Source of the DNA: Escherichia coli
GTDB lineage: Bacteria; Pseudomonadota; Gammaproteobacteria; Enterobacterales; Enterobacteriaceae
Direction: 5' to 3' (one strand)
Assembly (NCBI RefSeq): GCF_016903815.1
Contig: NZ_CP069972.1
Length of the DNA stretch: 64,000 nucleotides
Part shown: positions 2,146 to 49,058 of the stretch, piece after piece
Position numbering within the stretch: the first letter of the stretch is position 1
Layout: every line of letters begins with the position of its first letter
Made by a program: the position numbers and the translations under genes
The notes under the pieces: generated by a model
Databases searched by the model: none
The model's input: the letters and a program-made list of their open reading frames with translations, nothing else
Told to the model about the DNA's origin: nothing

Positions 2146-4383
2146 ATGTCGCCATCCCCCTTAATTAAATCCTGTGTGGCCTTTGCCCATACGCAATTCT
2201 ATTCCGGAGTTACTGTGAAAATTTTACTTCGCGCACTCTGTGCAGGCCTTGCTATATCCTCACTGCCGGCAATGGCTTCAGTGACCTATCAGGATATTGT
2301 GTCTGCCGCAACCAATCCTGACGATCTGTCTCGCCAGGCGCTGGTCACGATATTCGGTGATGTAGTCACCAATCCACTGTCAACCAGCGCCCCCACTCTG
2401 ATCGGAAGCATGTTCGGGGCGTTCAACAGTATCATCGCCGTACTTGCCGTTGTCTGGTTTATGTTCATTGGTATCCGTCATGTTGTGCGTTCGGGGCATC
2501 AGGGACAGGTATTCAGCACCGGACGCGATATCGTCGGCACACTGAGTGTCGTTGCAGGTTTTCTGATGATCGTTCCAACCGGAAATGGCTGGAGTATCGC
2601 TCAGCTCATTATGTTATGGGGCGCATCGATAATGGGGGTTGGGTCCGCCAATGTGATGGTGCAACTTGCCGCTGATAATATCGCAAATGGTTATTCAATG
2701 ACTGTACAGCCAGTTCAGGCATCCACACGAACAGCAGCGCGTGGCATTTTTGAAATGGAACTGTGTAAGTATGCGGTTAACGCAGGACTAAATGATTTTA
2801 ATCAGACGGTCAAATCCTCGACTTCACTGATGACAGAATCAGCTAAAACCGCCAGTGGTAATTACACTGTCACGGTATCCAATGGCAGCGGTATCTGTGG
2901 TTCAGCCAGCCTGTCAGTAGAAGGAAACGGAACAACAGATCAATCGACGATTGGAAAATTCTTTAATCCCTTCAGTAAAAACGAATACAGCGGTGTTATC
3001 TCAGCACAACGTGCAGCCATGGATAATATGATTAGCGACATGGACAACGCTGCCAGTGAGTTTGTGACAACATTTCTGGAAAAAAGAAATTCTGGCAACG
3101 GAACATTGCCGGATATCGAGACACGGATTCAGAGAGCAGCCGATGAGTATGAACGCGCTGTACAAAAATCGCTACCTATTGATAACGGAGAACAATCCAG
3201 GAAAGAAGCTCTCAAGTCTTATCTCACAACCTATGGATGGGTGACGCTTGGCGCGTGGTATCAGACCTTTGCCACTGCTAACCAGCGTCTGGCAGAGCTG
3301 GCTGACAGAGCTCCAGCTGTAACTTCAATGTCATCACTTGGGGAAGTTGGCGATACTGATTTATTTAGTGCTGTTATGGGGGCATACAAGACTCAATTAC
3401 AGAACTCCACATATACTCCAACGATAGGAACGATAACAACTCAAGATGAAAGTAATGCAGCTAATAGCACAGACCCACAAAGTGTGGTCATGAAAAGTAT
3501 AGCGCCAACCATATTAAAATGGACAAACCAAGCTGCTACTGAATGGTCAGGAACAGGAACAACCAGCAACCAAGTTAACCCATTAATTAAGATGAAAAAC
3601 ATCGGCGATTATACATTGGGTACAACAGAAATTCTCTGGACAGGATATACAACTGTCAGAGTTCTCGCGACAATGGGTGATAACTCTATTTTCGGAAAGG
3701 CTGTTAATTTGTTCTCTGGATTACCTAAAGGATTTGTTGCTCTGCTGGATGCTGCAGCTCCCCCAATATATTTCTTGTTGTTCCTGTTGTTTTGTGCGGG
3801 TTTTTCCTTATCAATTTACCTACCATTTATACCATTCATTTTCTGGATGACAGGCATTGGGAACTGGATAGTAAGCGTATTAATAGGATGCACCGCCGGG
3901 CCTCTGTGGGCAGCAACACATCTAGGAACATCAGAGGACAGAGGAAGTCGAGCAGCTTACGGATATATATACTTAATTGACAGCATGATAAGACCACCTC
4001 TCATGGTATTCGGTTTCTTTTTTGCCTCTGTCGCCATCATTGCCGTCGGCACAATATTAAACTCACTGTTTGGCGCAGCACTAGTTAACGTACAGGTAAA
4101 ATCATTAACAGGGATATTCAGCCTTGCCGGGTTCCTGCTAATTTACGCCCGTATGTGTACAACGTCTGTAGCTGCAATATTTGCTTTACAAGCATATCTT
4201 CCTGACCATGTTATCAATTTCTTGGGTGGTAGAGATGGTGTAAATACTCTTGGCAACCTCACCTCATCAGTAAAAGATATTTTTGCAGGTTCTAATAGAA
4301 ATATTAGACACAGCCCTGGAGTTAGAGAGGACAGACTAAAAAATGTCACAAAGGATGATAATAAAGATGGAATAAAAGGATAA
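2146..4383 (+). CDS. traY: TraY-like polytopic inner-membrane transfer protein (entry-exclusion target in IncI1)
   Basis: 745-aa ORF with many hydrophobic segments in N- and C-terminal thirds; alternative GTG start at 2215 has a better RBS (GGAG) and gives a signal-peptide-like N-terminus; excA-like gene directly downstream. Confidence 0.55.
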   Translation: MSPSPLIKSCVAFAHTQFYSGVTVKILLRALCAGLAISSLPAMASVTYQDIVSAATNPDDLSRQALVTIFGDVVTNPLSTSAPTLIGSMFGAFNSIIAVLAVVWFMFIGIRHVVRSGHQGQVFSTGRDIVGTLSVVAGFLMIVPTGNGWSIAQLIMLWGASIMGVGSANVMVQLAADNIANGYSMTVQPVQASTRTAARGIFEMELCKYAVNAGLNDFNQTVKSSTSLMTESAKTASGNYTVTVSNGSGICGSASLSVEGNGTTDQSTIGKFFNPFSKNEYSGVISAQRAAMDNMISDMDNAASEFVTTFLEKRNSGNGTLPDIETRIQRAADEYERAVQKSLPIDNGEQSRKEALKSYLTTYGWVTLGAWYQTFATANQRLAELADRAPAVTSMSSLGEVGDTDLFSAVMGAYKTQLQNSTYTPTIGTITTQDESNAANSTDPQSVVMKSIAPTILKWTNQAATEWSGTGTTSNQVNPLIKMKNIGDYTLGTTEILWTGYTTVRVLATMGDNSIFGKAVNLFSGLPKGFVALLDAAAPPIYFLLFLLFCAGFSLSIYLPFIPFIFWMTGIGNWIVSVLIGCTAGPLWAATHLGTSEDRGSRAAYGYIYLIDSMIRPPLMVFGFFFASVAIIAVGTILNSLFGAALVNVQVKSLTGIFSLAGFLLIYARMCTTSVAAIFALQAYLPDHVINFLGGRDGVNTLGNLTSSVKDIFAGSNRNIRHSPGVREDRLKNVTKDDNKDGIKG

Positions 4384-6374: not shown

Positions 6375-6461
6375 GTTAGTTGAAAAGAGATTTCCTCCGG
6401 TCAGGGCCACCCACTCTGTAACGGAACAGTAAAAAAACCGACCTCACCAGTCGGTTTTTTT
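6375..6461 (+). ncRNA. Predicted ~86-nt sRNA, candidate type I antitoxin
   Basis: Starts at the 24-nt repeat GTTAGTTGAAAAGAGATTTCCTCC and ends at an intrinsic terminator (ACCGAC-loop-GTCGGT plus T7 at 6437-6461); no ORF. Confidence 0.5.
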
Positions 6462-6614
6462 ACATCTGTTGTTTCTCAAAATCCGTCCGACATGCCCGTC
6501 ACACCGGGGAAACTCATGCTCTGAATCAGAACCAACCATCTCAACTTTGCCGTCTCCTGAAAAAACTGGCACATTCAGTTCGATAACTACCCATAAATAC
6601 AGAGAGAAAATCCG

Positions 6615-6935: not shown

Positions 6936-7112
6936 CGTTAACGTTTAACTTCGTAGGCTAACGTTGCCACAAGCACTGTGTTTCCCTGCTGGAGCCGGAG
7001 TCCGCAAAGCGAATCCCTCACCATCCAGACAAAACACAGAATCGTCACACAGATGACGATTAACATCATTAAAAACGTTCGCTGTGGCATCATAGCCCCT
7101 CCATTGCCTTAC

Positions 7113-7206
7113 GGCGGTTATCGGGCTACTATAATGTTGTCTAGGCATTACAGTAGAGCCCTTGGTTGATTGATAAAAAAATCTCCAGGGGCTTTCTGCT
7201 GTATAC
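7113..7206. repeat. 85-bp direct repeat copy 1 with internal imperfect palindrome
   Basis: CGGGCTACTATAATG...CATTACAGTAGAGCCC TTGGTTGATTGA...CTCCAGGGGCTTTCTGCTGTATA; near-identical to 7421-7500. Confidence 0.6.
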
Positions 7207-7420
7207 CGTCCACAAAACGCTTTCGGCATACAGCCTCAAGCGCCCGCAGCTATTCTAACGACTTTCGTATCGGTAACAATCCTTTTAACCAGCCCCACAC
7301 ATCTTTCGGACATGGTGAGTACAAAAGGCTGCGCTCTCGAACATTTGACATTGAAAATGATTCAGGTGACAGCCTGAATGTAGCAGGAGTCCCCGTCCTT
7401 CTGGCATAGAAGATGTCAAC

Positions 7421-16523: not shown

Positions 16524-16540
16524 GGTCAGCTCCTTACTGG

Positions 16541-16625
16541 GGTGTCGGGGCGAAGCCCTGACCAGGAGGCAATTGTATAATCGCGCGTGCGCGGTTATAC
16601 AATTGCACATCCTGTCCCGTTTTTC
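16541..16625 (+). other. oriT: Origin of transfer (oriT) with predicted nick site
   Basis: Perfect 10-bp inverted repeat AATTGTATAA/TTATACAATT (16571-16604) followed 10 bp later by ATCCTG^T (nick predicted 16614/16615) resembling the IncP nic motif; leading genes then point toward this site. Confidence 0.65.
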
Positions 16626-18075: not shown

Positions 18076-18386
18076 GGAGGAGCGAAGCTCCTTCTGCCGT
18101 CCGGGTCTTCGGGGATTTCCCCGCAGTGGACCTTTCCGACGGGGGACGCTCACCACGTCACGGGGCAGTTGTCCGGGGGCAGACGCAAAAGTTTTTGACG
18201 CCTGCGGCAAAAAGTTTTGTGGCTGGTACATCTCTCCCCTGGACGACTGAAACGGGATGTGGTCATGTATGTACCCCCGGAAAGTCCGTCTGCGGAGAAC
18301 AGGCCGCAGTGCGGCGGCAGACAGGCAGAGACAGCTGCGCCATCAGGCGCAGTGGCCTTACACACCGTAAGGTGTGCAGGGAGCGC
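18076..18386 (-). promoter_or_regulatory. Family-1 hairpin repeat, copy A (ssDNA-promoter-like, Frpo/ssi-type)
   Basis: Shares about 300 bp with 21469-21964 and 27812-28310, including inverted arms CCCCGCAGTGGACCTTTCC / GGAAAGTCC(A/G)...GGGG and TTGACGC...GCGGCAAAAAGTTTTGTGG. Confidence 0.6.
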
Positions 18387-18501
18387 CGCATACGGCGCGA
18401 CTGAAGAAAAACGACGGCACAACAATGGCATGTGGTGGTCACTGGCACACCACTCCCGCACAGGTGAAAACAGAGAAAACCGCACGACATTTACAACCAA
18501 A

Positions 18502-18594
18502 AAAAGTGAAATTTCTTCACTTTTTCACGCTTATTTTTCGCGTTGATTTGGTGATTATGATGATAAAATAAAGTGAAATTTTTTCACTTTTTCA
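18502..18594. promoter_or_regulatory. Two palindromic operator-like sites overlapping the promoter of the XRE gene
   Basis: AAAAAGTGAA-N5-TTCACTTTTT (18502-18526) and AAAGTGAA-N6-TTCACTTTTT (about 18570-18594) about 70 bp apart, the second abutting the ATG at 18605. Confidence 0.5.
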
Positions 18595-21468: not shown

Positions 21469-21964
21469 GAGGGGCGAAAGCCCCTTCTGCCGTCCACTTC
21501 TTCGGGGTTTCTCCCCGCAGTGGACCTTTCCGATGGGGCAGCGACTGCCACGGCACGGGGCAGTTGTCCGGGGGCAGACGCAAAAGTTTTTGACGCTTGC
21601 GGCAAAAAGTTTTGTGGCTGGTACATCTCTCCCCTGGACGGCTGAAACGTGTTGTGGCCGCTTCAGCCCCCGGAAAGTCCACAGCGGGGAAACAGGCCGC
21701 AGGGGGGGCGGCGGAAGGGCAGACAACTGCGCCATCAGGCGCAGTTTCCTTACACACCGTCAGGTGTGCAGGGAGCGCAGGTCACGGCGCGACAGAGGCG
21801 GCGCGACCGGAACGGTCGCTGCAAGCCTGGTTTTTCAGACATCGGACCGTAGCGGCAGCCCGAAACCGCGCCAGCGGGTTCGGCGGAGACTGGCGGGTGC
21901 GCCAGCAGCTGCCTGTCGGAGTCGGGCCTGACGACCGGATGCCGCCAGGCAGCCGGGAGCCGAA
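21469..21964 (-). promoter_or_regulatory. Family-1 hairpin repeat, copy B
   Basis: About 500 bp shared with copy C and about 300 bp with copy A; long imperfect inverted repeats. Confidence 0.6.
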
Positions 21965-22146
21965 GGGTGTCCCCGCCCCCGGGAGTCAGAACAACAGAAA
22001 CGACAAAACAGAAAAATGCCTCACACTATGACAGGCAGGAAGGGTAGCGCCGCAGGCGCGGCCCTCCTGTATTTCAGGCAGGCGTAAGCCTGCCAGGGTT
22101 TTCCGGGGGCCTGGCAGGCCATCCCCCCGCCGGAGCGGGGAGTAAA

Positions 22147-22659: not shown

Positions 22660-22992
22660 CATAGTCACATGTTCTGCGACACCGGGCGGTGCCGTGCCTC
22701 CATCTTTGCCGGGCCTGCAGGGATGCAAGGGCGCAAGGGAAGCCGCAGCCCGACGCACACGGCTGGCGGGAGTTGGAGGGTGAGACCGCGAAATCTGAGC
22801 GGGTGAACGACCGGAAAATCACGGCAGACGGGAAGGAGGGACCGGGTGACCGCAGCGGTTCATCTTACCTTGCATCCCGCCCGCAGAAGCCCGGCTACGA
22901 TGGAGGCACGGCACAGCCCGCACACGACACGGCGGCCACATAACTGAAAACCCACAAGGCCATGCCCCGCATGGCCGGGTAAAAGCGGAGCC
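22660..22992 (-). promoter_or_regulatory. Family-2 hairpin repeat, copy 1 (upstream of ardA)
   Basis: About 330 bp nearly identical to 31955-32286; about 45-nt inverted arms (GTGCCGTGCCTCCATC...GATGGAGGCACGGCAC) separated by about 150 nt. Confidence 0.6.
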
Positions 22993-27214: not shown

Positions 27215-27742
27215 TCAGAACGGGATGTCGTCTGAAAACCCGTAATCCTCCCCCTCCGGCGGTTGCGGCTGAGGCTCTGGCTGCGCGGCCTTACGTCCAC
27301 GGCCTTTCGTTTTCGCGCCACCTTTTTTCGTCGCGTCAGCACTCTGTGGCTGCCCATTCTGCTGAGGCTTCGGTTGCGCCTGAGCGTTCTGCTGTGGTGC
27401 ACGTCCCAGCATCTGCACGGTGCCCGTGGTCTTAACAAGAATTTCAGTGACGTAACGGGTGATACCGTTATCTTCCCAGCTACGGGTGCGAAGCTGACCT
27501 TCGATGTAGACCTGCGCACCCTTGCGCAGATATTCACCTGCCACTTCCGCGAGCTTGCCGAACAGCACCACGCGGTGCCATTCCGTCTGCTCCCGCATCT
27601 CCCCCGTCTGTTTGTCACGCCAGCTTTCTGATGTGGCCACCTGCAGGTTTGCCACTGCGCCCCCGTTGGGGATGTAACGGACTTCCGGATCATTGCCCAG
27701 ACGCCCGACGAGGATGACCTTGTTGATACCACGTGCACTCAT
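27215..27742 (-). CDS. ssb: Plasmid single-stranded DNA-binding protein (175 aa)
   Basis: [48 protein letters not shown]...; Gly/Pro/Gln-rich linker and acidic DDIPF tail; SD AGGAGG. Confidence 0.9.
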
Positions 27743-27811
27743 AAGAACCTCCTGACTGAAAGATGTGAGATAAACCGGATACCGGCGACGGGACGTTCAT
27801 GTGCCCCTTCA

Positions 27812-28310
27812 GAGGAGCGAAAGCTCCTCCTGCCGTCCACTTCACAGGGGTTTCTCCCCGCAGTGGACCTTTCCGATGGGGGCCCGTTTACCGCCTCACG
27901 GGGCAGCTGTCCGGGGGCGGACGCAAAATTTTTTGCCGGGTTCATGGCTAAAAATTTTGTGGCCGGTGCATCTCACCCTGGACAGATGGAACGGGAGGGG
28001 GTTACGTCTGCCCCCCGGAAAGTCCACAGCGGGGAAACAGGCCGCAGGGGGGGCGGCAGGAGGGAGGACTGCTGCGCCATCAGGCGCAGTTTCCTCACAC
28101 ACCGTCAGGTGTGCAGGGAGCGCAGGTCACGGCGCGACAGGGGCGGCGCGACCGGAACGGTCGCTGCAAGCCCGGGTTTTCACGCATCGGACCGTAGCGG
28201 CAGCCCGAAACCGCGCCAGCGGGTTCGGCGGAGACTGGCGGGTGCGCCAGCAGCTGCCCGTCGGAGTCGGGCCTGACGACCGGATGCCGCCAGGCAGCCG
28301 GGAGCCGAAG
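27812..28310 (-). promoter_or_regulatory. Family-1 hairpin repeat, copy C (upstream of ssb)
   Basis: Near-identical to copy B over about 500 bp; homology ends at about 28310, right where the group II intron begins. Confidence 0.6.
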
Positions 28311-28316
28311 TGGGCG

Positions 28317-30650
28317 GTGCGACAGGAAGTCGCTTAACGTATTGTTTTACATTGATAAAACCAGCTATCCCATTAGCTGTAGCCTACCGGGACAGGCGTT
28401 GCCGGCAACGGCGGGGTCTGAAGCTCCCGGGACAACGAGAGCCGGGCGTCAGCCCGGGTAATGCCCCGTGAGGGGCTTTACCTTGCTGCAAGCATCATGC
28501 GGCAGGAGAGCAAGGCTGGTCAGAAGGGTTAACACATGTGAACTGTTGATAAACACCGTTATCGGCAACAGGCCAAAGATGCTGACAGGCCTGAACCAAA
28601 AGGTACGGGGTCCGGTTGCTACCTCGCGCACAGGGAGCACATGGGCGCAGAGACCCCCGGTGAAGAGACAGAACCCGCCCTGACCCTCTGTATGTTAAGC
28701 GGAACCTGGTAAACCCGTATCGCTGCCTCACAGGCAGGTGAACCGCAAGGAACACTGTTAGCGGTGCGGGCATAGGAGGACGGAAAAAGCGAATGCCCGG
28801 CTGTAATAACCGGGATACGGGGCAGGTTCCCCGACGCGAAAGCGGGCAGACTTCCGTCTGGTCTTTAATTGCATGAAAAGCTGTAAAGCAGTCAAAAGGA
28901 TATCAGCGAGATGAATACACACATCAGTGTGTCCACGATACCCCACCCGACAGGCTGGCACACCATAAACTGGAAAGCATGCCATGCCCGGGTGCGAAAG
29001 CTACAGTTACGGATTGCAAAGGCAACCCGACAGCAACAATGGCGGCAGGTCAGAGAACTACAGCGCATCCTCACCCGCTCATTCTCCGGCAAAGCCGTGG
29101 CTGTCAGGCGTGTAACTGAAAATACCGGTAAAAGGACACCCGGTATTGACGGAAAAATATGGCACACACCGAAGGAGAAATGGGAAGGAATATGCAGCCT
29201 GAATCTGTGTGGTTACAGGCCACAGCCACTACGGCGAATACATATCCCAAAATCAAACGGCAAAACGCGACCGCTGGGCATACCCACAATGAGGGACCGG
29301 GCCATGCAGGCACTGTGGCTGCTGGCTCTGGAACCCGTATCCGAGACCACTGCTGACCATAACAGCTATGGTTTCAGACCAATGCGCAGCACGCATGACG
29401 CCATTGAGTCCATTTTTCTGCGGATGAGCCAGAAAGTATCGCCCAAATGGATACTGGAGGGCGATATTAAAGGGTGCTTCGATAACATCAGCCATGACTG
29501 GCTGCTTTCCCATATTCCGATGGACAGGAGACTGCTTAAAAAATGGTTGAAAGCAGGTTACATGGAAAGAGGCGTGTTTAACCATACGAACAGCGGGACA
29601 CCGCAGGGAGGCATCATATCCCCTGTTCTCGCCAACATGGCTCTGGACGGACTGGAGAAGGAACTGATGCAAACGTTCAGGAAAAGTGGTTATCACAGTG
29701 CAAAGCACCAGGTGAATTATGTGAGATATGCTGATGATTTCATCTGTTCAGGCAGCTCCCGTGAATTGCTGGAAAATGAGGTCAGACCACTGATTGCAGC
29801 TTTCATGCGCGAACGAGGGCTGGAACTGTCGGAAGAAAAAACAGCGATCACACATATAGATAAAGGCTTCGACTTTTTAGGGCAGAACGTCAGGAAGTAC
29901 AACGGTAAAATGCTGATTAAACCGTCGAAGAAAAACCTGAAGAACTTCCTCTGTAAAGTCAGAGAAATAATTAAACGCAATCCGACGCTCCCGGCATGGA
30001 AACTGATAGGCCAGCTAAACCCGGTGATCCGGGGATGGGCTACCTATCACCGACACGTCGTGGCGAAAGAAACATTTAATTATGTCGACACCCAAATCTG
30101 GCGAGCTATATGGCGATGGTGTGTAAGACGGCATCCCCGGAAAGGATTGCGGTGGATCGCCGGACGATACTTCTCCTTTGAAGGCAGGCGCTGGATCTTT
30201 AAAGCCATAACCCCGGAAGGGAAAATTCTGACACTCTTCCGGGCAATGGAAACACCGATAAAGCGCCATATAAAAATCAAAGGCGAAGCAACACCATACA
30301 CCCCCGGAATGGAAATCTACTTTGAACGTCGTCTGGATCTAATCTGGAAAGGCAAATCAAAGAAGATGAAGACAGTAGTTCAACTCTGGAAGAGGCAGGG
30401 GAAACACTGTCCGCAGTGCGGACAACTCATAACCAACCAGACCGGATGGAATATACATCACCGGATCAGGAAAGTTATGGGCGGCAGTGACGAACTGACC
30501 AATCTCGAGTTGTTACATCCGAACTGCCACCGACAGTTACACAGCAGGGAAGCCGGTGCTCACCGAAAGCACTTATAAAGGCTTGAGCGGAGTGCGGGGA
30601 AACTCGCACGCTCCGTTCTTAGGGGGCGGCGGCGCAGCAATGTGCCGCTG
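28317..30650 (+). mobile_element. Group II intron (about 2.3 kb) with intron-encoded RT/maturase/HNH protein
   Basis: 5' GTGCG at 28317; about 590 nt of upstream structured RNA; ORF in domain IV; domain V hairpin GAGCGGAGTGCGGGGAAACTCGCACGCTCCGTTC at 30585-30618; 3' end approximate. Confidence 0.75.
28911..30578 (+). CDS. Group II intron-encoded protein: reverse transcriptase, maturase, HNH endonuclease (555 aa)
   Basis: RT motifs (GIDG, YADD) and C-terminal Cys/His HNH segment (CPQCGQ...HHRIRKVMGGSD...HPNCH). Confidence 0.85.
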   Translation: MNTHISVSTIPHPTGWHTINWKACHARVRKLQLRIAKATRQQQWRQVRELQRILTRSFSGKAVAVRRVTENTGKRTPGIDGKIWHTPKEKWEGICSLNLCGYRPQPLRRIHIPKSNGKTRPLGIPTMRDRAMQALWLLALEPVSETTADHNSYGFRPMRSTHDAIESIFLRMSQKVSPKWILEGDIKGCFDNISHDWLLSHIPMDRRLLKKWLKAGYMERGVFNHTNSGTPQGGIISPVLANMALDGLEKELMQTFRKSGYHSAKHQVNYVRYADDFICSGSSRELLENEVRPLIAAFMRERGLELSEEKTAITHIDKGFDFLGQNVRKYNGKMLIKPSKKNLKNFLCKVREIIKRNPTLPAWKLIGQLNPVIRGWATYHRHVVAKETFNYVDTQIWRAIWRWCVRRHPRKGLRWIAGRYFSFEGRRWIFKAITPEGKILTLFRAMETPIKRHIKIKGEATPYTPGMEIYFERRLDLIWKGKSKKMKTVVQLWKRQGKHCPQCGQLITNQTGWNIHHRIRKVMGGSDELTNLELLHPNCHRQLHSREAGAHRKHL

Positions 30651-30856
30651 CTACCCGACCAATAAAAGACAGCCAGAAACGGTGACAGTGTCACGGAATA
30701 TCACACCTGTTCCCTGCATACAGCCATACACTACCTTCTGACCGGAAAGCCGGGCCGGCAGCGCCGCAGGCGCTGCACCCCGCGTTTCCGGCAGGCGTCA
30801 GCCTGCCAGGGGTTTTCGCGCGGGCTGACAGGCGGCCTCCACCGCCTGCCCCTGTA

Positions 30857-31048
30857 TCACCTGTTTCTGCTGCCCTGAAGGATGTAGTGACCGCCCAGGA
30901 AAACCGCCTGCTGATTCGCCACAAAATCGCAGATTTCATCAACAATCTGCGCGGTGGTGAGCGGTTTCTGCCCCATTTCACGACGCCGCGCATTAATCAC
31001 GGCCCTGTAATTACGCAGAATTTCGCGGGTTTCTGTGCTGATATTCAT
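30857..31048 (-). CDS. Small hypothetical leading-region protein (63 aa)
   Basis: ATG overlaps stop of upstream ORF (ATGA); SD GGAGA. Confidence 0.4.
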   Translation of the reverse strand: MNISTETREILRNYRAVINARRREMGQKPLTTAQIVDEICDFVANQQAVFLGGHYILQGSRNR

Positions 31049-31954: not shown

Positions 31955-32286
31955 TGTTCACATATTCCGCGACACCGGGCGGTGCCGTGCCTCCATCTTT
32001 GCCGGGCCTGCAGGGTTGCAAGGGCGCAAGGGAAGCCGCAGCCTGACGCGCACGGCTGACGGGAGTTGAAGGGTGAGACCGCGAAATCTGAGCGGGTGAA
32101 CGACCGGAAAATCACGGCAGACGGGAAGGAGGGACCGGGTGACCGCAGCGGTTCACCTTACCTTGCAACCCGCCCGCAGAAGCCCGGCTACGATGGAGGC
32201 ACGGCACAGCCCGCACACGGCGCTGAGGCCACATAACTGAAAACCCACAAGGCCATGCCCCGCATGGCCGGGTAAAGCGGAGCCTG
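31955..32286 (-). promoter_or_regulatory. Family-2 hairpin repeat, copy 2 (upstream of klcA-like gene)
   Basis: Near-identical to 22660-22992. Confidence 0.6.
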
Positions 32287-34906: not shown

Positions 34907-35833
34907 TCATCCGCCATAATGCGCCACATTGTCGATTATCCACGCAGGTCCGGTGACTTCCGGCAGCTCATCATCATCTGTCGGGGAAGACCATTCCAGT
35001 TCCCCCCACAGCACATCAACGAGCTCTCCGCGCTCATACAACTGCCAGCCACAGAAATTGCAGCCCTGTTCGGCGTACCAGTGCTCCAGCGTGCAGCCGA
35101 AACGGCGGCTTAATTCTGCAACAACGTCGCTTTCCGGCTGACACCACGGCGTGTCGAAATCTACCTGAATGAAGTTTTCCCCCTGACTGCTGATATTCAG
35201 GTCATACCCACAAGGCCACTTCACGCCATACCGTTCTGTATACCAGTGATATGCAGAAGGAACACCGTTCAGAACACCGCCGTTAAAGCCATTCACTTCA
35301 ATATCCAGGCGGGTCGGCAAAACCGTCAGCAGGTCAAACGGCATGGTTTTTTCCGGCAGTACGTTGTCACACAGACGGTTCCACCACACCGATACATCCT
35401 CGTTACCCCAGATGTCACACCAGTCACCTCTTTTTGCGGTGAAATGCACAGTGATAGTTTCCCTGACATCATCCGGTAACTCTTCCCAGCGACGCTGTCC
35501 AGTACCGCTCTGCAGCCAGAGTTCATGCAGCATCAGGCAGTTTTGCTCATCCAGCAGTACACCGTTCTGCAGGTGTGTCAGCCAGCGGGTGAACGCGATA
35601 TTTTCCGGTGATACAGCACCACGTCCGGCAGCCGTCACTCCGGGGCACTGCTCAGAGCGGATATTTTCAGTGATCTGCAGAAGTCCGGCACTTCCGGCCA
35701 GAAACAGCTGAATACCTTCATTTGTGGCGCGGCGATAAAGCGGTGTAACTGCACCGCTGGCCAGTCGTTTAATCTCAGCGATCTGTGCCGGTTCACCAGA
35801 AAAATACATACGATTCGAGCACCAGTTTGGCAT
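34907..35833 (-). CDS. Hypothetical leading-region protein (308 aa)
   Basis: ATG at 35833 with SD GGAG 8 nt upstream; Trp/Cys-rich; no recognised domain. Confidence 0.5.
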   Translation of the reverse strand: MPNWCSNRMYFSGEPAQIAEIKRLASGAVTPLYRRATNEGIQLFLAGSAGLLQITENIRSEQCPGVTAAGRGAVSPENIAFTRWLTHLQNGVLLDEQNCLMLHELWLQSGTGQRRWEELPDDVRETITVHFTAKRGDWCDIWGNEDVSVWWNRLCDNVLPEKTMPFDLLTVLPTRLDIEVNGFNGGVLNGVPSAYHWYTERYGVKWPCGYDLNISSQGENFIQVDFDTPWCQPESDVVAELSRRFGCTLEHWYAEQGCNFCGWQLYERGELVDVLWGELEWSSPTDDDELPEVTGPAWIIDNVAHYGG

Positions 35834-36156
35834 GGGAATTCTCCTCTCACATGCGGCCTCCATCAGGCCGTGCCGCACCTGTTACCGGGCGACCGCATAC
35901 GAATGCAGGTGCGGCCCCGAAGCCGCAGCGCGTGGAGGAGGAACGACGAAACGTGACCGGGTGAGGAGGCCGGCGACAGCGACACACTTGCATCGGATGC
36001 AGCCCGGTTAACGTGCCGGCACGGCCTGGGTAACCAGGTATTTTGTCCACAGAACCGTGCACAAAATGCTGTGGATAAGCTGGACACAGCAGCCCACAGC
36101 AGGCATACAGCCACACACTCAGAGAATTGAGCGTTTTTTAGTCACAACAATGACAT

Positions 36157-38202: not shown

Positions 38203-38276
38203 TTGTTATCCTGTTATCCTGCTATCTTGTTATCTTGTTATCTTGTTATCTTGTTATCTTGTTATCTTGTTATCTT
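38203..38276. repeat. Array of about nine tandem 8-bp TTGTTATC repeats upstream of parA (centromere-like)
   Basis: Direct reading; followed by imperfect palindromes (TTAACAACTTGCTAAGTTGTTAA). Confidence 0.65.
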
Positions 38277-38400
38277 AATTAATCTATAAATCAAATACTT
38301 AACAACTTGCTAAGTTGTTAACATAACAAAAATAATTGCATGGTTCGCGTTCAGATGGCAATATTAAGTTGTTAACTTAACAGCTTAATATGAGGCTATA

Positions 38401-39027: not shown

Positions 39028-39326
39028 GAAATAGAGCAAACACTTCACCTCGTGACGAGGCAGCATTTATTAACGGTGGCACGGCTGGCCTTGATAATAC
39101 CAAAAAGTCATCAGATAAATCATCGGTTGTAAGCAAAGCAAAACCAGTGAGTATTTCTTTTTTTGAAGAAAACCTAAAAGACATTGATGCCCTTATAACG
39201 GCTGAGATGGTTTCAGGTAAAGGCAGAGTGAATCGTTCTGATGTTGTCAGGGCGGCGGTAGAAGCACTTAAAACACTATCAAAAACAGAGGTATCACGAT
39301 TGATAGCAGAAGTAAAACAAAGATAA
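39024..39326 (+). CDS. Small centromere-binding partner of ParA (100 aa)
   Basis: Overlaps parA stop; small basic protein; flanked by repeat arrays. Confidence 0.5.
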   Translation: MRNRANTSPRDEAAFINGGTAGLDNTKKSSDKSSVVSKAKPVSISFFEENLKDIDALITAEMVSGKGRVNRSDVVRAAVEALKTLSKTEVSRLIAEVKQR

Positions 39327-39330
39327 CACC

Positions 39331-39396
39331 TTGTTATCTTGTTATCTTGTTATCTTGTTATCTTGTTATCTTGTTATCTTGTTATCTTGTTATCTT
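39331..39396. repeat. Second array of about eight tandem TTGTTATC repeats downstream of the par genes
   Basis: Same 8-bp unit as 38203-38276. Confidence 0.65.
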
Positions 39397-39451
39397 CAAT
39401 GTATTTTAGGATGACCTATGTTGAATAGAACCTAAAACAAAACAAATATTA

Positions 39452-47905: not shown

Positions 47906-47982
47906 AAGCTGTCGCTTATGGCGGAGCGATTGTGCCGTGTATTTATACACTGCACAGGGTTGAATCTCTGGTACGGTTTCAT
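47893..47982 (-). CDS. repY: Leader peptide RepY (29 aa)
   Basis: ATG at 47982 to TGA at 47893 encodes MKPYQRFNPVQCINTRHNRSAISDSLWQV; stop overlaps repZ start region. Confidence 0.65.
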   Translation of the reverse strand: MKPYQRFNPVQCINTRHNRSAISDSLWQV

Positions 47983-47994
47983 TATACTTTACCC

Positions 47995-48070
47995 GTATTC
48001 TGTGAGGCCCCCACTATCTTTCGTCGTTCCGCCAAGTTCGTAAGAAAGATAGTGGGGGTTTTCCTTTTAT
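47995..48070 (+). ncRNA. inc: Inc antisense RNA (about 70 nt) of the repZ replicon
   Basis: Promoter TTGAAT-17-TATACT (47960-47988); 15-bp stem CCCCCACTATCTTTC/GAAAGATAGTGGGGG with loop containing CGCCAA, then T-run; antisense to repZ leader. Confidence 0.6.
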
Positions 48071-49058
48071 GGCTTCCGGAACATCTTCAGTCTTCTGACT
48101 TACTGCCCGTACATGCCATCTCTCCTGAATGCCTTATGGCGCATTCTGCCGTCCGGCTTTCGCCGCTTTGCTCCACAGAGTGCCACCCTCTGCACAGCTA
48201 ATAACAGCCGAAATATACCCGCTTTACGTTAATTTGAAAAGCATTACAACGATCTCTTCTCTTCCAGTGCCTCCTCACTGATACCTCTAATAAGTTAATC
48301 TTGACCTGCGTCAAAAAAATAAAATCTATTTTTAAAAGCAGATTTTTCTGCTTTAGATCTTTCTTTTGGATTAAAAGATCGACTTTTGTCCTACTCACGA
48401 TCATTTATCTTACAACCGATCTACCTAACAGAATAATATTCTGTTTTAATGCAATTAAACGATCTAAATAACCTTTAAAAAATCATTTTGTAGATCATTC
48501 GATCGTAAATAGAATAATTCTTAGATGATAAAACCATTTGTTACACAACCCGCCAATTGTGTAACAACAGCCTCTACAAGAGCATATTTGTTCATATGTT
48601 CGTCAGAACTGCGGATTGTCTGGACGAGGGTCAGACACCGTTTCGTGCATATGGACCAGCATGTTCGAACGCCACAAAGCAGAAGCATCATGCCTGGATC
48701 GCTTCGGCGCGGAGCGTTAAGTTTTGACGCTTTTTTGTATGTTTTTTAAGCTGTTAGTTGACTCGGTGCGTTATACTAAGTACCCTTTACTGGTCACAGG
48801 CAAAACTGTGATCGGGCGTAGGAACCCGCGTAGTCATCGTCGGCGCAGAAGTTAATTTCTTCATTTGGCGTCGTTTTTTGCCATACCATAAAGACAGGAA
48901 CTTGTATTTCTTGTCGTCATCTATGGTAGCTCAGGCGGGGCAGGCATTAGCCTGGCCGGTTTCCGATGACGCCGGTATTCCTACCCCCGTCTGGGCTATC
49001 ACCAATGAGCGTAGGAACTCGGTGATAGCGTTTTTAGTTGTCATCGGAGACCGTTGCT

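Follow-up and report, generated by a model that had tools for sequence, protein, structure and literature searches.

The 64,000-nucleotide stretch of Escherichia coli DNA analysed here (contig NZ_CP069972.1, assembly GCF_016903815.1; hereafter the window) contains a complete group II intron, which lies on the + strand within a plasmid leading region. Its sequence places it in subgroup IIB1 and the CL1 lineage, as a relative of EcI5, and suggests that it is intact and mobile. We consider it probable that this element arrived by site-specific retrohoming, at a target whose 5′ part appears to be the conserved distal end of a repeat of the ssi/Frpo type. The intron is already known, and we regard it as real but ordinary. 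Features are listed below by position in the window.

27215–27742, − strand: ssb, which opens the operon downstream of repeat copy C (open reading frame; annotated ssb in homologous records)
27812–28310, + strand: repeat copy C, predicted ssi3/Frpo2-type single-strand promoter region upstream of ssb, with a large hairpin at about 27826–28063
28303–28316, + strand: predicted 5′-exon target, with IBS2a (A28303), IBS2 (GCCGA, 28304–28308) and the IBS1 region (28310–28316), from complementarity to EBS2a, EBS2 and EBS1
28317–30659, + strand: complete group II intron (subgroup IIB1, CL1 lineage by sequence), 2,343 nt, GUGCG...CCCGAC; empty site and Rfam at both ends
28361–28510, + strand: part of ribozyme domain I (subdomains Ib–Ic), Rfam RF02012
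28560–28566, + strand: putative EBS2a (U28560, then A28561) and EBS2 (UCGGC, 28562–28566), homologous to those of EcI5
28625–28631, + strand: putative EBS1 loop GCGCAC (28626–28631), with C28625 just before it; homologous loop in five introns
28911–30578, + strand: intron-encoded protein of 555 aa, with reverse transcriptase (RT), maturase (X) and HNH endonuclease domains (open reading frame, Pfam, TIGR04416)
30585–30618, + strand: 34-nt domain V, carrying the AGC triad and a GAAA loop
30622–30656, + strand: domain VI, in which the branch-point A at 30653 is bulged (hand pairing from sequence, inside the RF00029 match)
30660, + strand: putative IBS3, the first 3′-exon nucleotide, C, from comparison of the +1 base across site types
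30857–31048, − strand: 63-aa open reading frame, the final gene of the adjacent operon (annotated as a hypothetical protein in L001, L002 and L005–L008)

Borders, ribozyme and encoded protein

The empty allele is found in an intron-free IncK2/Z plasmid, NZ_CP023387.1 (L001), in which ...GCCGAAGTGGGCG runs directly into CAATAAAAGAC..., continuous across the site and with one mismatch to the window flank in 441 nt on the 3′ side. This allele fixes the intron borders exactly, and its comparison with the window reveals no target-site duplication. The intron runs from GUGCG at 28317 to CCCGAC at 30659, in keeping with the GUGYG and AY ends of group II introns. An earlier note, drawn up from the letters of the sequence, had reported a complete intron at 28317–30650: its GTGCG start and its completeness stand, whereas its 3′ end fell 9 nt short, within domain VI and upstream of the branch-point A.

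Rfam covariance models, the check on borders and class that the earlier note had suggested, matched both domain I and domains V/VI. Domain I, about 450 nt in size, scored 121.8 bits (E 3.5e-25) against RF02012 (group-II-D1D4-7), for which the gathering score is 34, and this match falls within the 594 nt that precede the open reading frame inside the intron, first described as about 590 nt of 5′ structure. The match to RF00029 (Intron_gpII; 30583–30659, 60.1 bits) takes in the domain V hairpin at the very position first given for it, with the catalytic AGC triad at 30586–30588, and also domain VI, where hand pairing puts the branch-point A 7 nt from the 3′ splice site. An MFE fold of the 5′ 596 nt of the intron was unusable as a model of domain I, which was therefore read by homology to relatives.

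All three domains ascribed to the 555-aa protein (RT, maturase and HNH) were found, with Pfam matches to RVT_N, RVT_1, GIIM and HNH, a TIGR04416 score of 385 bits (cut-off 300) and a YADD motif read in the sequence; PGAP annotates the open reading frame as ltrA. The protein is 56% identical over 97% of its length to that of EcI5 from pO157, an intron listed as CL1 (PMC8643678), and 56–61% identical to the proteins of EcI5 and other plasmid introns.

Target recognition in the leading-region repeat

IIB1 introns share a layout in which a 5-bp EBS2/IBS2 pairing occupies positions −13 to −9 and EBS2a, lying two nucleotides upstream of EBS2 and followed by an A, pairs with −14 (PMC8643678). Exon-binding sites were placed by comparing the window intron with four relatives, and this layout was recovered: EBS2 forms 5/5 pairs with GCCGA at −13 to −9, and the U of EBS2a pairs with A at −14. 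The EBS2a/EBS2 columns covary in the four relatives, each matching its own 5′ exon, and the EBS1 loop forms from 5/6 to 6/6 pairs with the intron's own 5′ exon across five introns. The window site is of an IncI type, which differs from the IncF type in the last six bases of the 5′ exon and in the 3′ exon; all insertion sites examined share positions from about −80 to −8, single-base differences aside. EBS1 of the window intron is identical to that of copies residing at the perfectly matching IncF site, where GCGCAC forms 6/6 pairs with GUGCGC; with the window exon, GUGGGCG, it forms 1/6 pairs in the standard register and 6/7 when shifted by one nucleotide, using C28625. Both plasmid site types have C as the +1 base, and a chromosomal site in yejF has T, which fits a predicted G at EBS3. 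A hand search for complements of the 5′ exon had also raised CGCCC (intron positions 360–364) as EBS1; this was rejected because it fits the IncI-type exon only and because, in EcI5 and other relatives, the homologous loop is a different one.

The leading region of the window holds three copies of the repeat, of which copy C is 88.8% identical to copy B (21469–21965) and 80.7% identical to copy A (18077–18401). Homology between B, which carries no intron, and C ends at 21965/28310 and picks up again at 22046–22119/30760–30833, just as the earlier note had seen. The impression that the intron sits exactly at the edge of the repeat proved an accident of this plasmid, since repeat homology in IncF plasmids extends about 45 nt beyond the insertion point. 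Both ssi3 and Frpo2 are known upstream of ssb, according to passages of PMC9849209 and PMC10104558, and copy C would be of this type by its position upstream of ssb and its predicted transferred-strand stem-loop (ssDNA fold z = −9.6; a hairpin of about 240 nt, with inverted repeats). A simple scan of 27700–28317 for duplex promoters found nothing.

The proposal that the intron had landed in or beside a structured single-stranded promoter element holds as to "beside", given the adjoining ssi/Frpo-type repeat, and fails as to "in", with the large promoter-like hairpin (27826–28063) about 250 nt from the insertion site. No gene or promoter hairpin is interrupted by the intron, and the 63-aa open reading frame ends 197 nt past it. 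Disturbed expression of the distal genes, also suggested at first, is unlikely because the intron sits on the downstream side of the 3′ ends of these genes and past the promoter repeat of ssb.

An R64-type nick region lies on the + strand at 16541–16616, about 11.7 kb from the intron, with nikA running opposite; all leading genes are on the − strand, ssb, psiB and ardA included, and relative to them the intron runs antisense. These orientations agree with the initial placing of the intron, on the transferred strand of the leading region, and indicate that its sense strand is the transferred one. The T strand is the template for leading genes (PMC9849209); as the intron is antisense to those genes, it cannot be transcribed from the incoming single strand, and its transcription has to await synthesis of the complementary strand. 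The promoter scan upstream of the intron turned up none on the + strand.

In the retrohoming that we favour, intron RNA would pair with its target through EBS2a at −14, EBS2 at −13 to −9, EBS1 at the last 6–7 nt of the 5′ exon and presumably EBS3 at +1. To judge from domain content, the RNA would then reverse-splice into the top strand, the HNH domain would cut the bottom strand and cDNA synthesis would be primed at that cut, on double-stranded plasmid DNA; this classical endonuclease route appears the most likely. Leading regions of IncF, IncI, IncK and related plasmids hold two or three copies of the ssi/Frpo-type repeat, and a target within it is therefore a ready-made, non-coding, multi-copy homing site carried by conjugative plasmids. 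Intergenic, antisense and outside the promoter hairpin, the intron is thus probably close to neutral for its plasmid.

Distribution and alternative explanations

The same intron is present in 1,067 PLSDB plasmid records, and the repeat stands directly 5′ of it in 1,013 of them. The 3′ exons are of at least two types, window-like in 131 records and IncF-type in 784. The window copy is 100% identical to that in NZ_CP103522.1, while IncF and Klebsiella copies are about 99% identical to it (21 of 2,343 nt differ). An intron junction was found in 319 of 5,426 complete E. coli genomes (~6%). Many records match the exon halves only of junction queries, and empty sites occur in otherwise near-identical plasmids. 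One IncF plasmid carries three near-identical copies, one per repeat copy, and an ectopic chromosomal copy in yejF retains GGAGCCGA and the GUG..CG motifs. An exact-match scan with the first 28 nt of the intron across one-genome-per-species contigs gave two matches, one in a Streptomyces assembly and the other in an Erysipelotrichaceae MAG; given their IncF-type flanks, both look like contamination rather than independent sites. A cousin with 61% identity occupies the same locus in pINV plasmid L012, its 5′ end truncated by an IS, and is found at ≥80% coverage in 14 records.

Passages of PMC8765060 describe a 2,343-bp group II intron in pHN7A8 alongside intron-free sister plasmids, among them 58 FII-33 plasmids, and report that intron-bearing FII-33 plasmids are still conjugative, with conjugation occurring with and without the intron. 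During experimental evolution, two replicate lines acquired new intron junctions at this position of an IncI plasmid, according to a passage of PMC10104558, whose "putative group II intron" of IncI/IncF plasmids is probably that of pHN7A8. The passages concerned use the intron to mark lineages or record a new junction, and contain no analysis of its class, exon-binding sites, strand or link with ssi/Frpo. Kl.pn.I5 was rejected as the identity of the window intron because, at 1,910 bp, it is a different element. E.c.I8, a CL1-type intron name in the Zimmerly nomenclature, was considered as a candidate name only.

The earlier note had seen in the site a fit to retrohoming into single-stranded or hairpin targets, which appears superfluous because the canonical IIB1 pairings can explain the site and the protein has an HNH domain. 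We judge it unlikely that homing is coupled to conjugation, with the RNP reverse-splicing, in either donor or recipient, into the transferred strand during its single-stranded stage. In that case the target would be exposed just 3′ of promoter-type hairpins, and complementary-strand synthesis would prime the cDNA, making the endonuclease dispensable. The intron-binding sequences do lie on the transferred strand in both IncI and IncF plasmids, but such a match has a chance expectation of 50% for any site-specific element, and two relatives, EcI5 (empty site at 35813/35814, − strand of the window) and L013, have their targets on the other strand of leading regions, the one that is not transferred. 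A 6-bp ssDNA hairpin, GCCGGG/CCCGGC, is predicted at the IncF-type site, with IBS2a, IBS2 and most of IBS1 in its loop, and the window site follows a small hairpin at 28253–28298; no small hairpin spans the IncI-type window site, however. Variation of the 3′ exon between site types would be of less consequence if insertion could do without bottom-strand cleavage, yet a full HNH domain is kept in the protein. Similarly, the de novo insertions arose in a strain with conjugative plasmids (in the passage of PMC10104558), although the chromosomal yejF insertion requires no conjugation. That the intron is specialised for a conjugative single-stranded intermediate, its RNP using the incoming or outgoing strand, strikes us as improbable; if true, it would couple intron spread to plasmid transfer.

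Co-option by the plasmid, for instance for regulation or insulation of leading-region expression or for a defence or anti-defence role of the RT, we consider very improbable. The intron is very common, as the above counts attest, but its presence is patchy, with many empty sites in near-identical plasmids and the intron-free FII-33 plasmids of PMC8765060, in whose passages plasmids with and without the intron conjugate. The ribozyme and mobility parts are all intact; being antisense to the single-strand template (PMC9849209), the intron allows no early expression; and introns and reverse transcriptases are absent from a survey of leading-region anti-defence genes. That the intron is not an insertion but an ancestral block of the plasmid lineage, or was recombined in with its flanks, is practically untenable: nothing but the sharing of junctions by many plasmids speaks for it, and it is refuted by the precise empty allele of NZ_CP023387.1. 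The presence of the same intron at different repeat copies and in yejF also speaks against it, as do the junctions seen to arise experimentally (PMC10104558, in the passage cited).

Site-specific retrohoming into the repeat thus remains our preferred reading, and what it adds is descriptive. Clinically important resistance plasmids of the IncF, IncI and IncK groups commonly carry the intron as a passenger, and it already serves as a lineage marker. A homing site that is part of the ssi/Frpo repeat explains why it is found on many plasmid backbones, always in one orientation (sense strand on the transferred strand), and in up to three copies in some plasmids, where recombination between several 2.3-kb direct repeats within the leading region could favour deletions. 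Understanding of group II intron mobility and of early leading-region expression is unchanged by these results.

Relation to known group II introns

The pHN7A8/FII-33 intron resembles the window intron in length (2,343 bp), in its leading-region location and in having intron-free sisters (passages of PMC8765060). EcI5 (E.c.I5, IIB1/CL1, of pO157) shares the EBS2a-A-EBS2 layout, the EBS1 loop, an endonuclease domain and residence in a plasmid leading region, and domain I can be aligned over its full length, at a mean column identity of 78% among three introns; EcI5 differs in inserting at the start of a DUF1281 gene, in sense orientation and on the non-transferred strand, its target being present in one copy and not as a repeat.

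Group IIC introns likewise insert shortly 3′ of a DNA stem-loop, in non-coding positions. They do so after terminator or attC hairpins, recognise an IBS1 of 3–4 nt only, have a reduced domain I without EBS2 and encode proteins without an endonuclease domain. The window intron, in contrast, has a full-size domain I, a 5-bp EBS2/IBS2 pairing with EBS2a, and an HNH domain, and so falls outside IIC; no stem-loop spans or abuts its IncI-type site. Ll.LtrB, which resides in the relaxase gene of lactococcal conjugative elements, is another mobile group II intron that spreads with a conjugative element, but it belongs to IIA (ML lineage) and lies in sense orientation within an essential transfer gene, where its splicing controls conjugation, whereas the window intron is, by sequence, a IIB1 element, intergenic and antisense.

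Borders and protein of the intron

The window belongs to an IncI1-type plasmid, and its closest record is NZ_CP103522.1, an IncI1/B/O plasmid. The borders of its group II intron were fixed by comparison with the intron-free IncK2/Z plasmid NZ_CP023387.1, which has the same flanks. The empty site there reads ...GCCGAAGTGGGCG joined directly to CAATAAAAGAC..., followed by one mismatch in 441 nt against the window; as this site is continuous, the intron spans 28317-30659 (2,343 nt), without target duplication. The earlier note had placed the start exactly and had correctly described about 590 nt of 5′ structure, a 555-aa ORF and domain V at 30585-30618, but its end (30650) was 9 nt short, inside domain VI and before the bulged branch A at 30653. 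Plasmid and intron features identified were:

7088-7245: sok (Rfam)
47918-48066: repZ pseudoknot (Rfam)
28361-28510, + strand: group II intron domain I (Rfam RF02012, 121.8 bits)
28911-30578, + strand: intron ORF, 555 aa, between the two Rfam intron matches
30583-30659, + strand: group II intron domains V/VI (Rfam RF00029, 60.1 bits)

Rfam also matched C4 antisense RNA near the repZ region (48919-49006, + strand, 77.5 bits) and AgrB (6376-6463, + strand, 55.3 bits). At 38204-38284 and 39324-39404, some 1.05 kb from each other, an 8-bp unit (TGTTATCT/TGTTATCC) is tandemly repeated; these two arrays may be iteron-like or partition-site-like.

The intron protein carries RVT_N, RVT_1, GIIM and HNH domains, scores 385 bits on TIGR04416 and has a YADD motif and HNH cysteine/histidine residues visible in its sequence. 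It is 56% identical to the protein of EcI5 (pO157), 59% to that of a Salmonella plasmid intron and 61% to that of a pINV intron (CP046677.1). EcI5 belongs to subgroup IIB1 and to the CL1 lineage (PMC8643678).

Insertion sites, flanking repeat and exon-binding sequences

The 5′ flank of the intron is part of a repeat of about 500 nt with three copies in the window:

18077-18401: repeat copy A
21469-21965: repeat copy B
27812-28310: repeat copy C, the 5′ flank of the intron
27215-27742, − strand: ssb, a leading-region gene

Folded as single-stranded DNA, copy C is predicted to be strongly structured (z = −9.6 against shuffled controls), with a hairpin of about 240 nt (27826-28063) and smaller hairpins after it. 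Its place upstream of ssb is that of ssi3 in IncI plasmids and of Frpo2 in F. The intron begins about 250 nt past the large hairpin and 18 nt past the last small one (28253-28298). Homology between copies B and C does stop at 28310 and resume near 30760, as the earlier note had it, but the intron seems to sit at the repeat's edge only because these two copies diverged there; the IncF repeat continues past the site and IncF 3′ exons are homologous for about 45 nt beyond it, so the IncF site lies inside the repeat.

The intron was found in 1,067 PLSDB records (526 Escherichia, 491 Klebsiella), essentially full-length in 982 of these. A query joining 120 nt of repeat to 120 nt of intron was covered in 1,013 records, and the 5′ exon is almost always the repeat; the 5′ junction was also present in 319 of 5,426 complete E. 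coli genomes. The 3′ exon was of the window type in 131 records and of the IncF type in 784. Sites were:

IncI and IncK (window): ...GGGAGCCGAAGTGGGCG, intron, CAATAAAAGAC
IncF and Klebsiella: ...GGGAGCCGAAGGTGCGC, intron, CCGGCAGACAG
chromosomal copy in yejF: CAGGAGCCGATGGTGTCGT, intron, TAAATCC, with the IBS2 motif kept but shifted one nt and IBS1 kept in part

The IncF plasmid CP056471.1 holds three copies (at 18593, 28673 and 34344), one in each of three Frpo-type repeats and all in one orientation, with 3′ exons mutually homologous over about 45 nt; such direct 2.3-kb repeats could drive leading-region deletions. A different group II intron in this plasmid (25511-27412, 633-aa protein, opposite strand) adjoins ssb. 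The pINV intron (773-2942 in CP046677.1; 66% nucleotide identity) is a diverged cousin at the same locus, likewise oriented and adjoining the 63-aa/DUF1380/antirestriction operon, with its 5′ end truncated by an IS element. Contigs assigned to Streptomyces morookaense and to an Erysipelotrichaceae MAG carry the intron with IncF-type leading-region flanks and most likely represent enterobacterial plasmid contamination of those assemblies.

For exon-binding sites, domain I was aligned against EcI5 and three further relatives and homologous EBS columns were compared. Under the IIB1 rule (Monachello et al., PMC8643678), a 5-bp EBS2/IBS2 pairing occupies −13..−9, and −14 pairs with EBS2a, located two nt before EBS2 with an A next to it; U-A-UCGGC (28560-28566) opposite A-GCCGA (28303-28308) fits perfectly. 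By homology, the EBS1 loop is GCGCAC (28626-28631). In the relatives, the homologous EBS2 (ACCAG, CAUAA, AGUUG, ACCCU) match their own exons at 4-5 of 5 positions and the EBS1 loops (GUUUGC, UCGUAG, UUUGAC, UUCGAC) at 5-6 of 6. The intron therefore has exon-binding sites, backed by covariation across the five introns; this answers the refuting condition of the earlier note, that such sites fail to fold.

EBS1 forms 6 of 6 pairs with the IncF-type exon GUGCGC, but in the same register only 1 of 6 with the window's own 5′ exon (28310-28316), which reaches 6 of 7 after a one-nt shift, with C28625 pairing with G−1 and one G-G mismatch. EBS1 is identical in copies at the IncI-type and the perfectly matching IncF-type sites, and these copies show 4-21 differences elsewhere. 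Passages of PMC10104558 describe a new intron junction that arose in an IncI plasmid in two replicate evolution lines, at a site that a sister plasmid already had filled; according to these junctions, the IncI-type site is used despite the poor in-register pairing.

Orientation relative to the transferred strand

An R64-type oriT is readable in the window:

16541-16616, + strand: oriT, with repeat GTCGGGGCGAAGCCCTGAC, inverted repeats and nick region CACATCCTGTCCCG

The nick is presumably in the ATCCTG-bearing strand, following the RP4 and R64 literature. The nikA gene begins at 16535 on the − strand, pointing away from the oriT orientation. Every leading-region gene is on the − strand, including ardA, psiA, psiB, a parB-like gene and ssb and, past the intron, the 63-aa ORF, DUF1380 gene and antirestriction gene. 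Two directly repeated 300-nt stretches, 96% identical, are by position just upstream of ardA (22665-22964) and of the second antirestriction gene (31958-32257). Transfer runs 5′ to 3′, leading region first, with leading genes templated by the transferred strand (PMC9849209); given oriT on the + strand, it is the + strand that is transferred. This is the sense strand of the intron, as the earlier note had proposed; relative to the leading genes the intron is thus antisense, and it cannot be transcribed before the complementary strand is made. A promoter scan of the duplex sequence found no + strand promoter upstream of the intron.

That the intron targets single-stranded or hairpin DNA, as also proposed, is unlikely. 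Its binding sequences are on the transferred strand, and a 6-bp hairpin, GCCGGG (−20..−15) with CCCGGC (−1..+5), is predicted for the single-stranded IncF-type empty site, reconstructed by joining about 4100-4125 of another plasmid record (L005) to its 6464-6470; the loop would hold IBS2a, IBS2 and the greater part of IBS1. However, fold prediction gave no such hairpin at the window's IncI-type site, the protein retains its HNH domain, the yejF insertion is independent of conjugation, and strand agreement in one site-specific element amounts to a coin toss. Moreover, close relatives use the opposite strand: an unoccupied EcI5 site at 35813/35814 (− strand, within 35780-35860), which agrees with pO157 at every position between −40 and +20, is found where a DUF1281 gene starts, opposite in strand to our intron, and the Salmonella plasmid intron runs with the leading genes, judging from its DUF932 gene, which is on the same strand as the intron (opposite in plasmid record L007).

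Effect on the plasmid and relation to known systems

The intron interrupts no credible gene. A short ‘hypothetical protein’ annotated over the empty site in some records falls inside the GC-rich repeat and is probably the ‘77-aa ORF’ of pHN7A8 mentioned in passages of PMC8765060, which also describe FII-33 plasmids as conjugative with and without the intron. The neighbouring operon has its 3′ end upstream of the intron, which also falls outside the ssb promoter repeat, on its far side; together with the FII-33 carriers, this argues against the disturbed expression of distal genes once suggested.

Published work already covers this intron, and hundreds of records carry it under the annotation ltrA. 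Within literature passages on it, we found nothing said about its homing site belonging to the ssi/Frpo repeat, about its sense strand being the one transferred, or about the location of its exon-binding sites; introns go unmentioned in a Nature 2024 survey of leading regions. The repeat-borne homing site, strand and EBS positions are modest descriptive additions and make no new kind of system. With ygfA of F, the intron shares the property of being untranscribable until the complementary strand is present.
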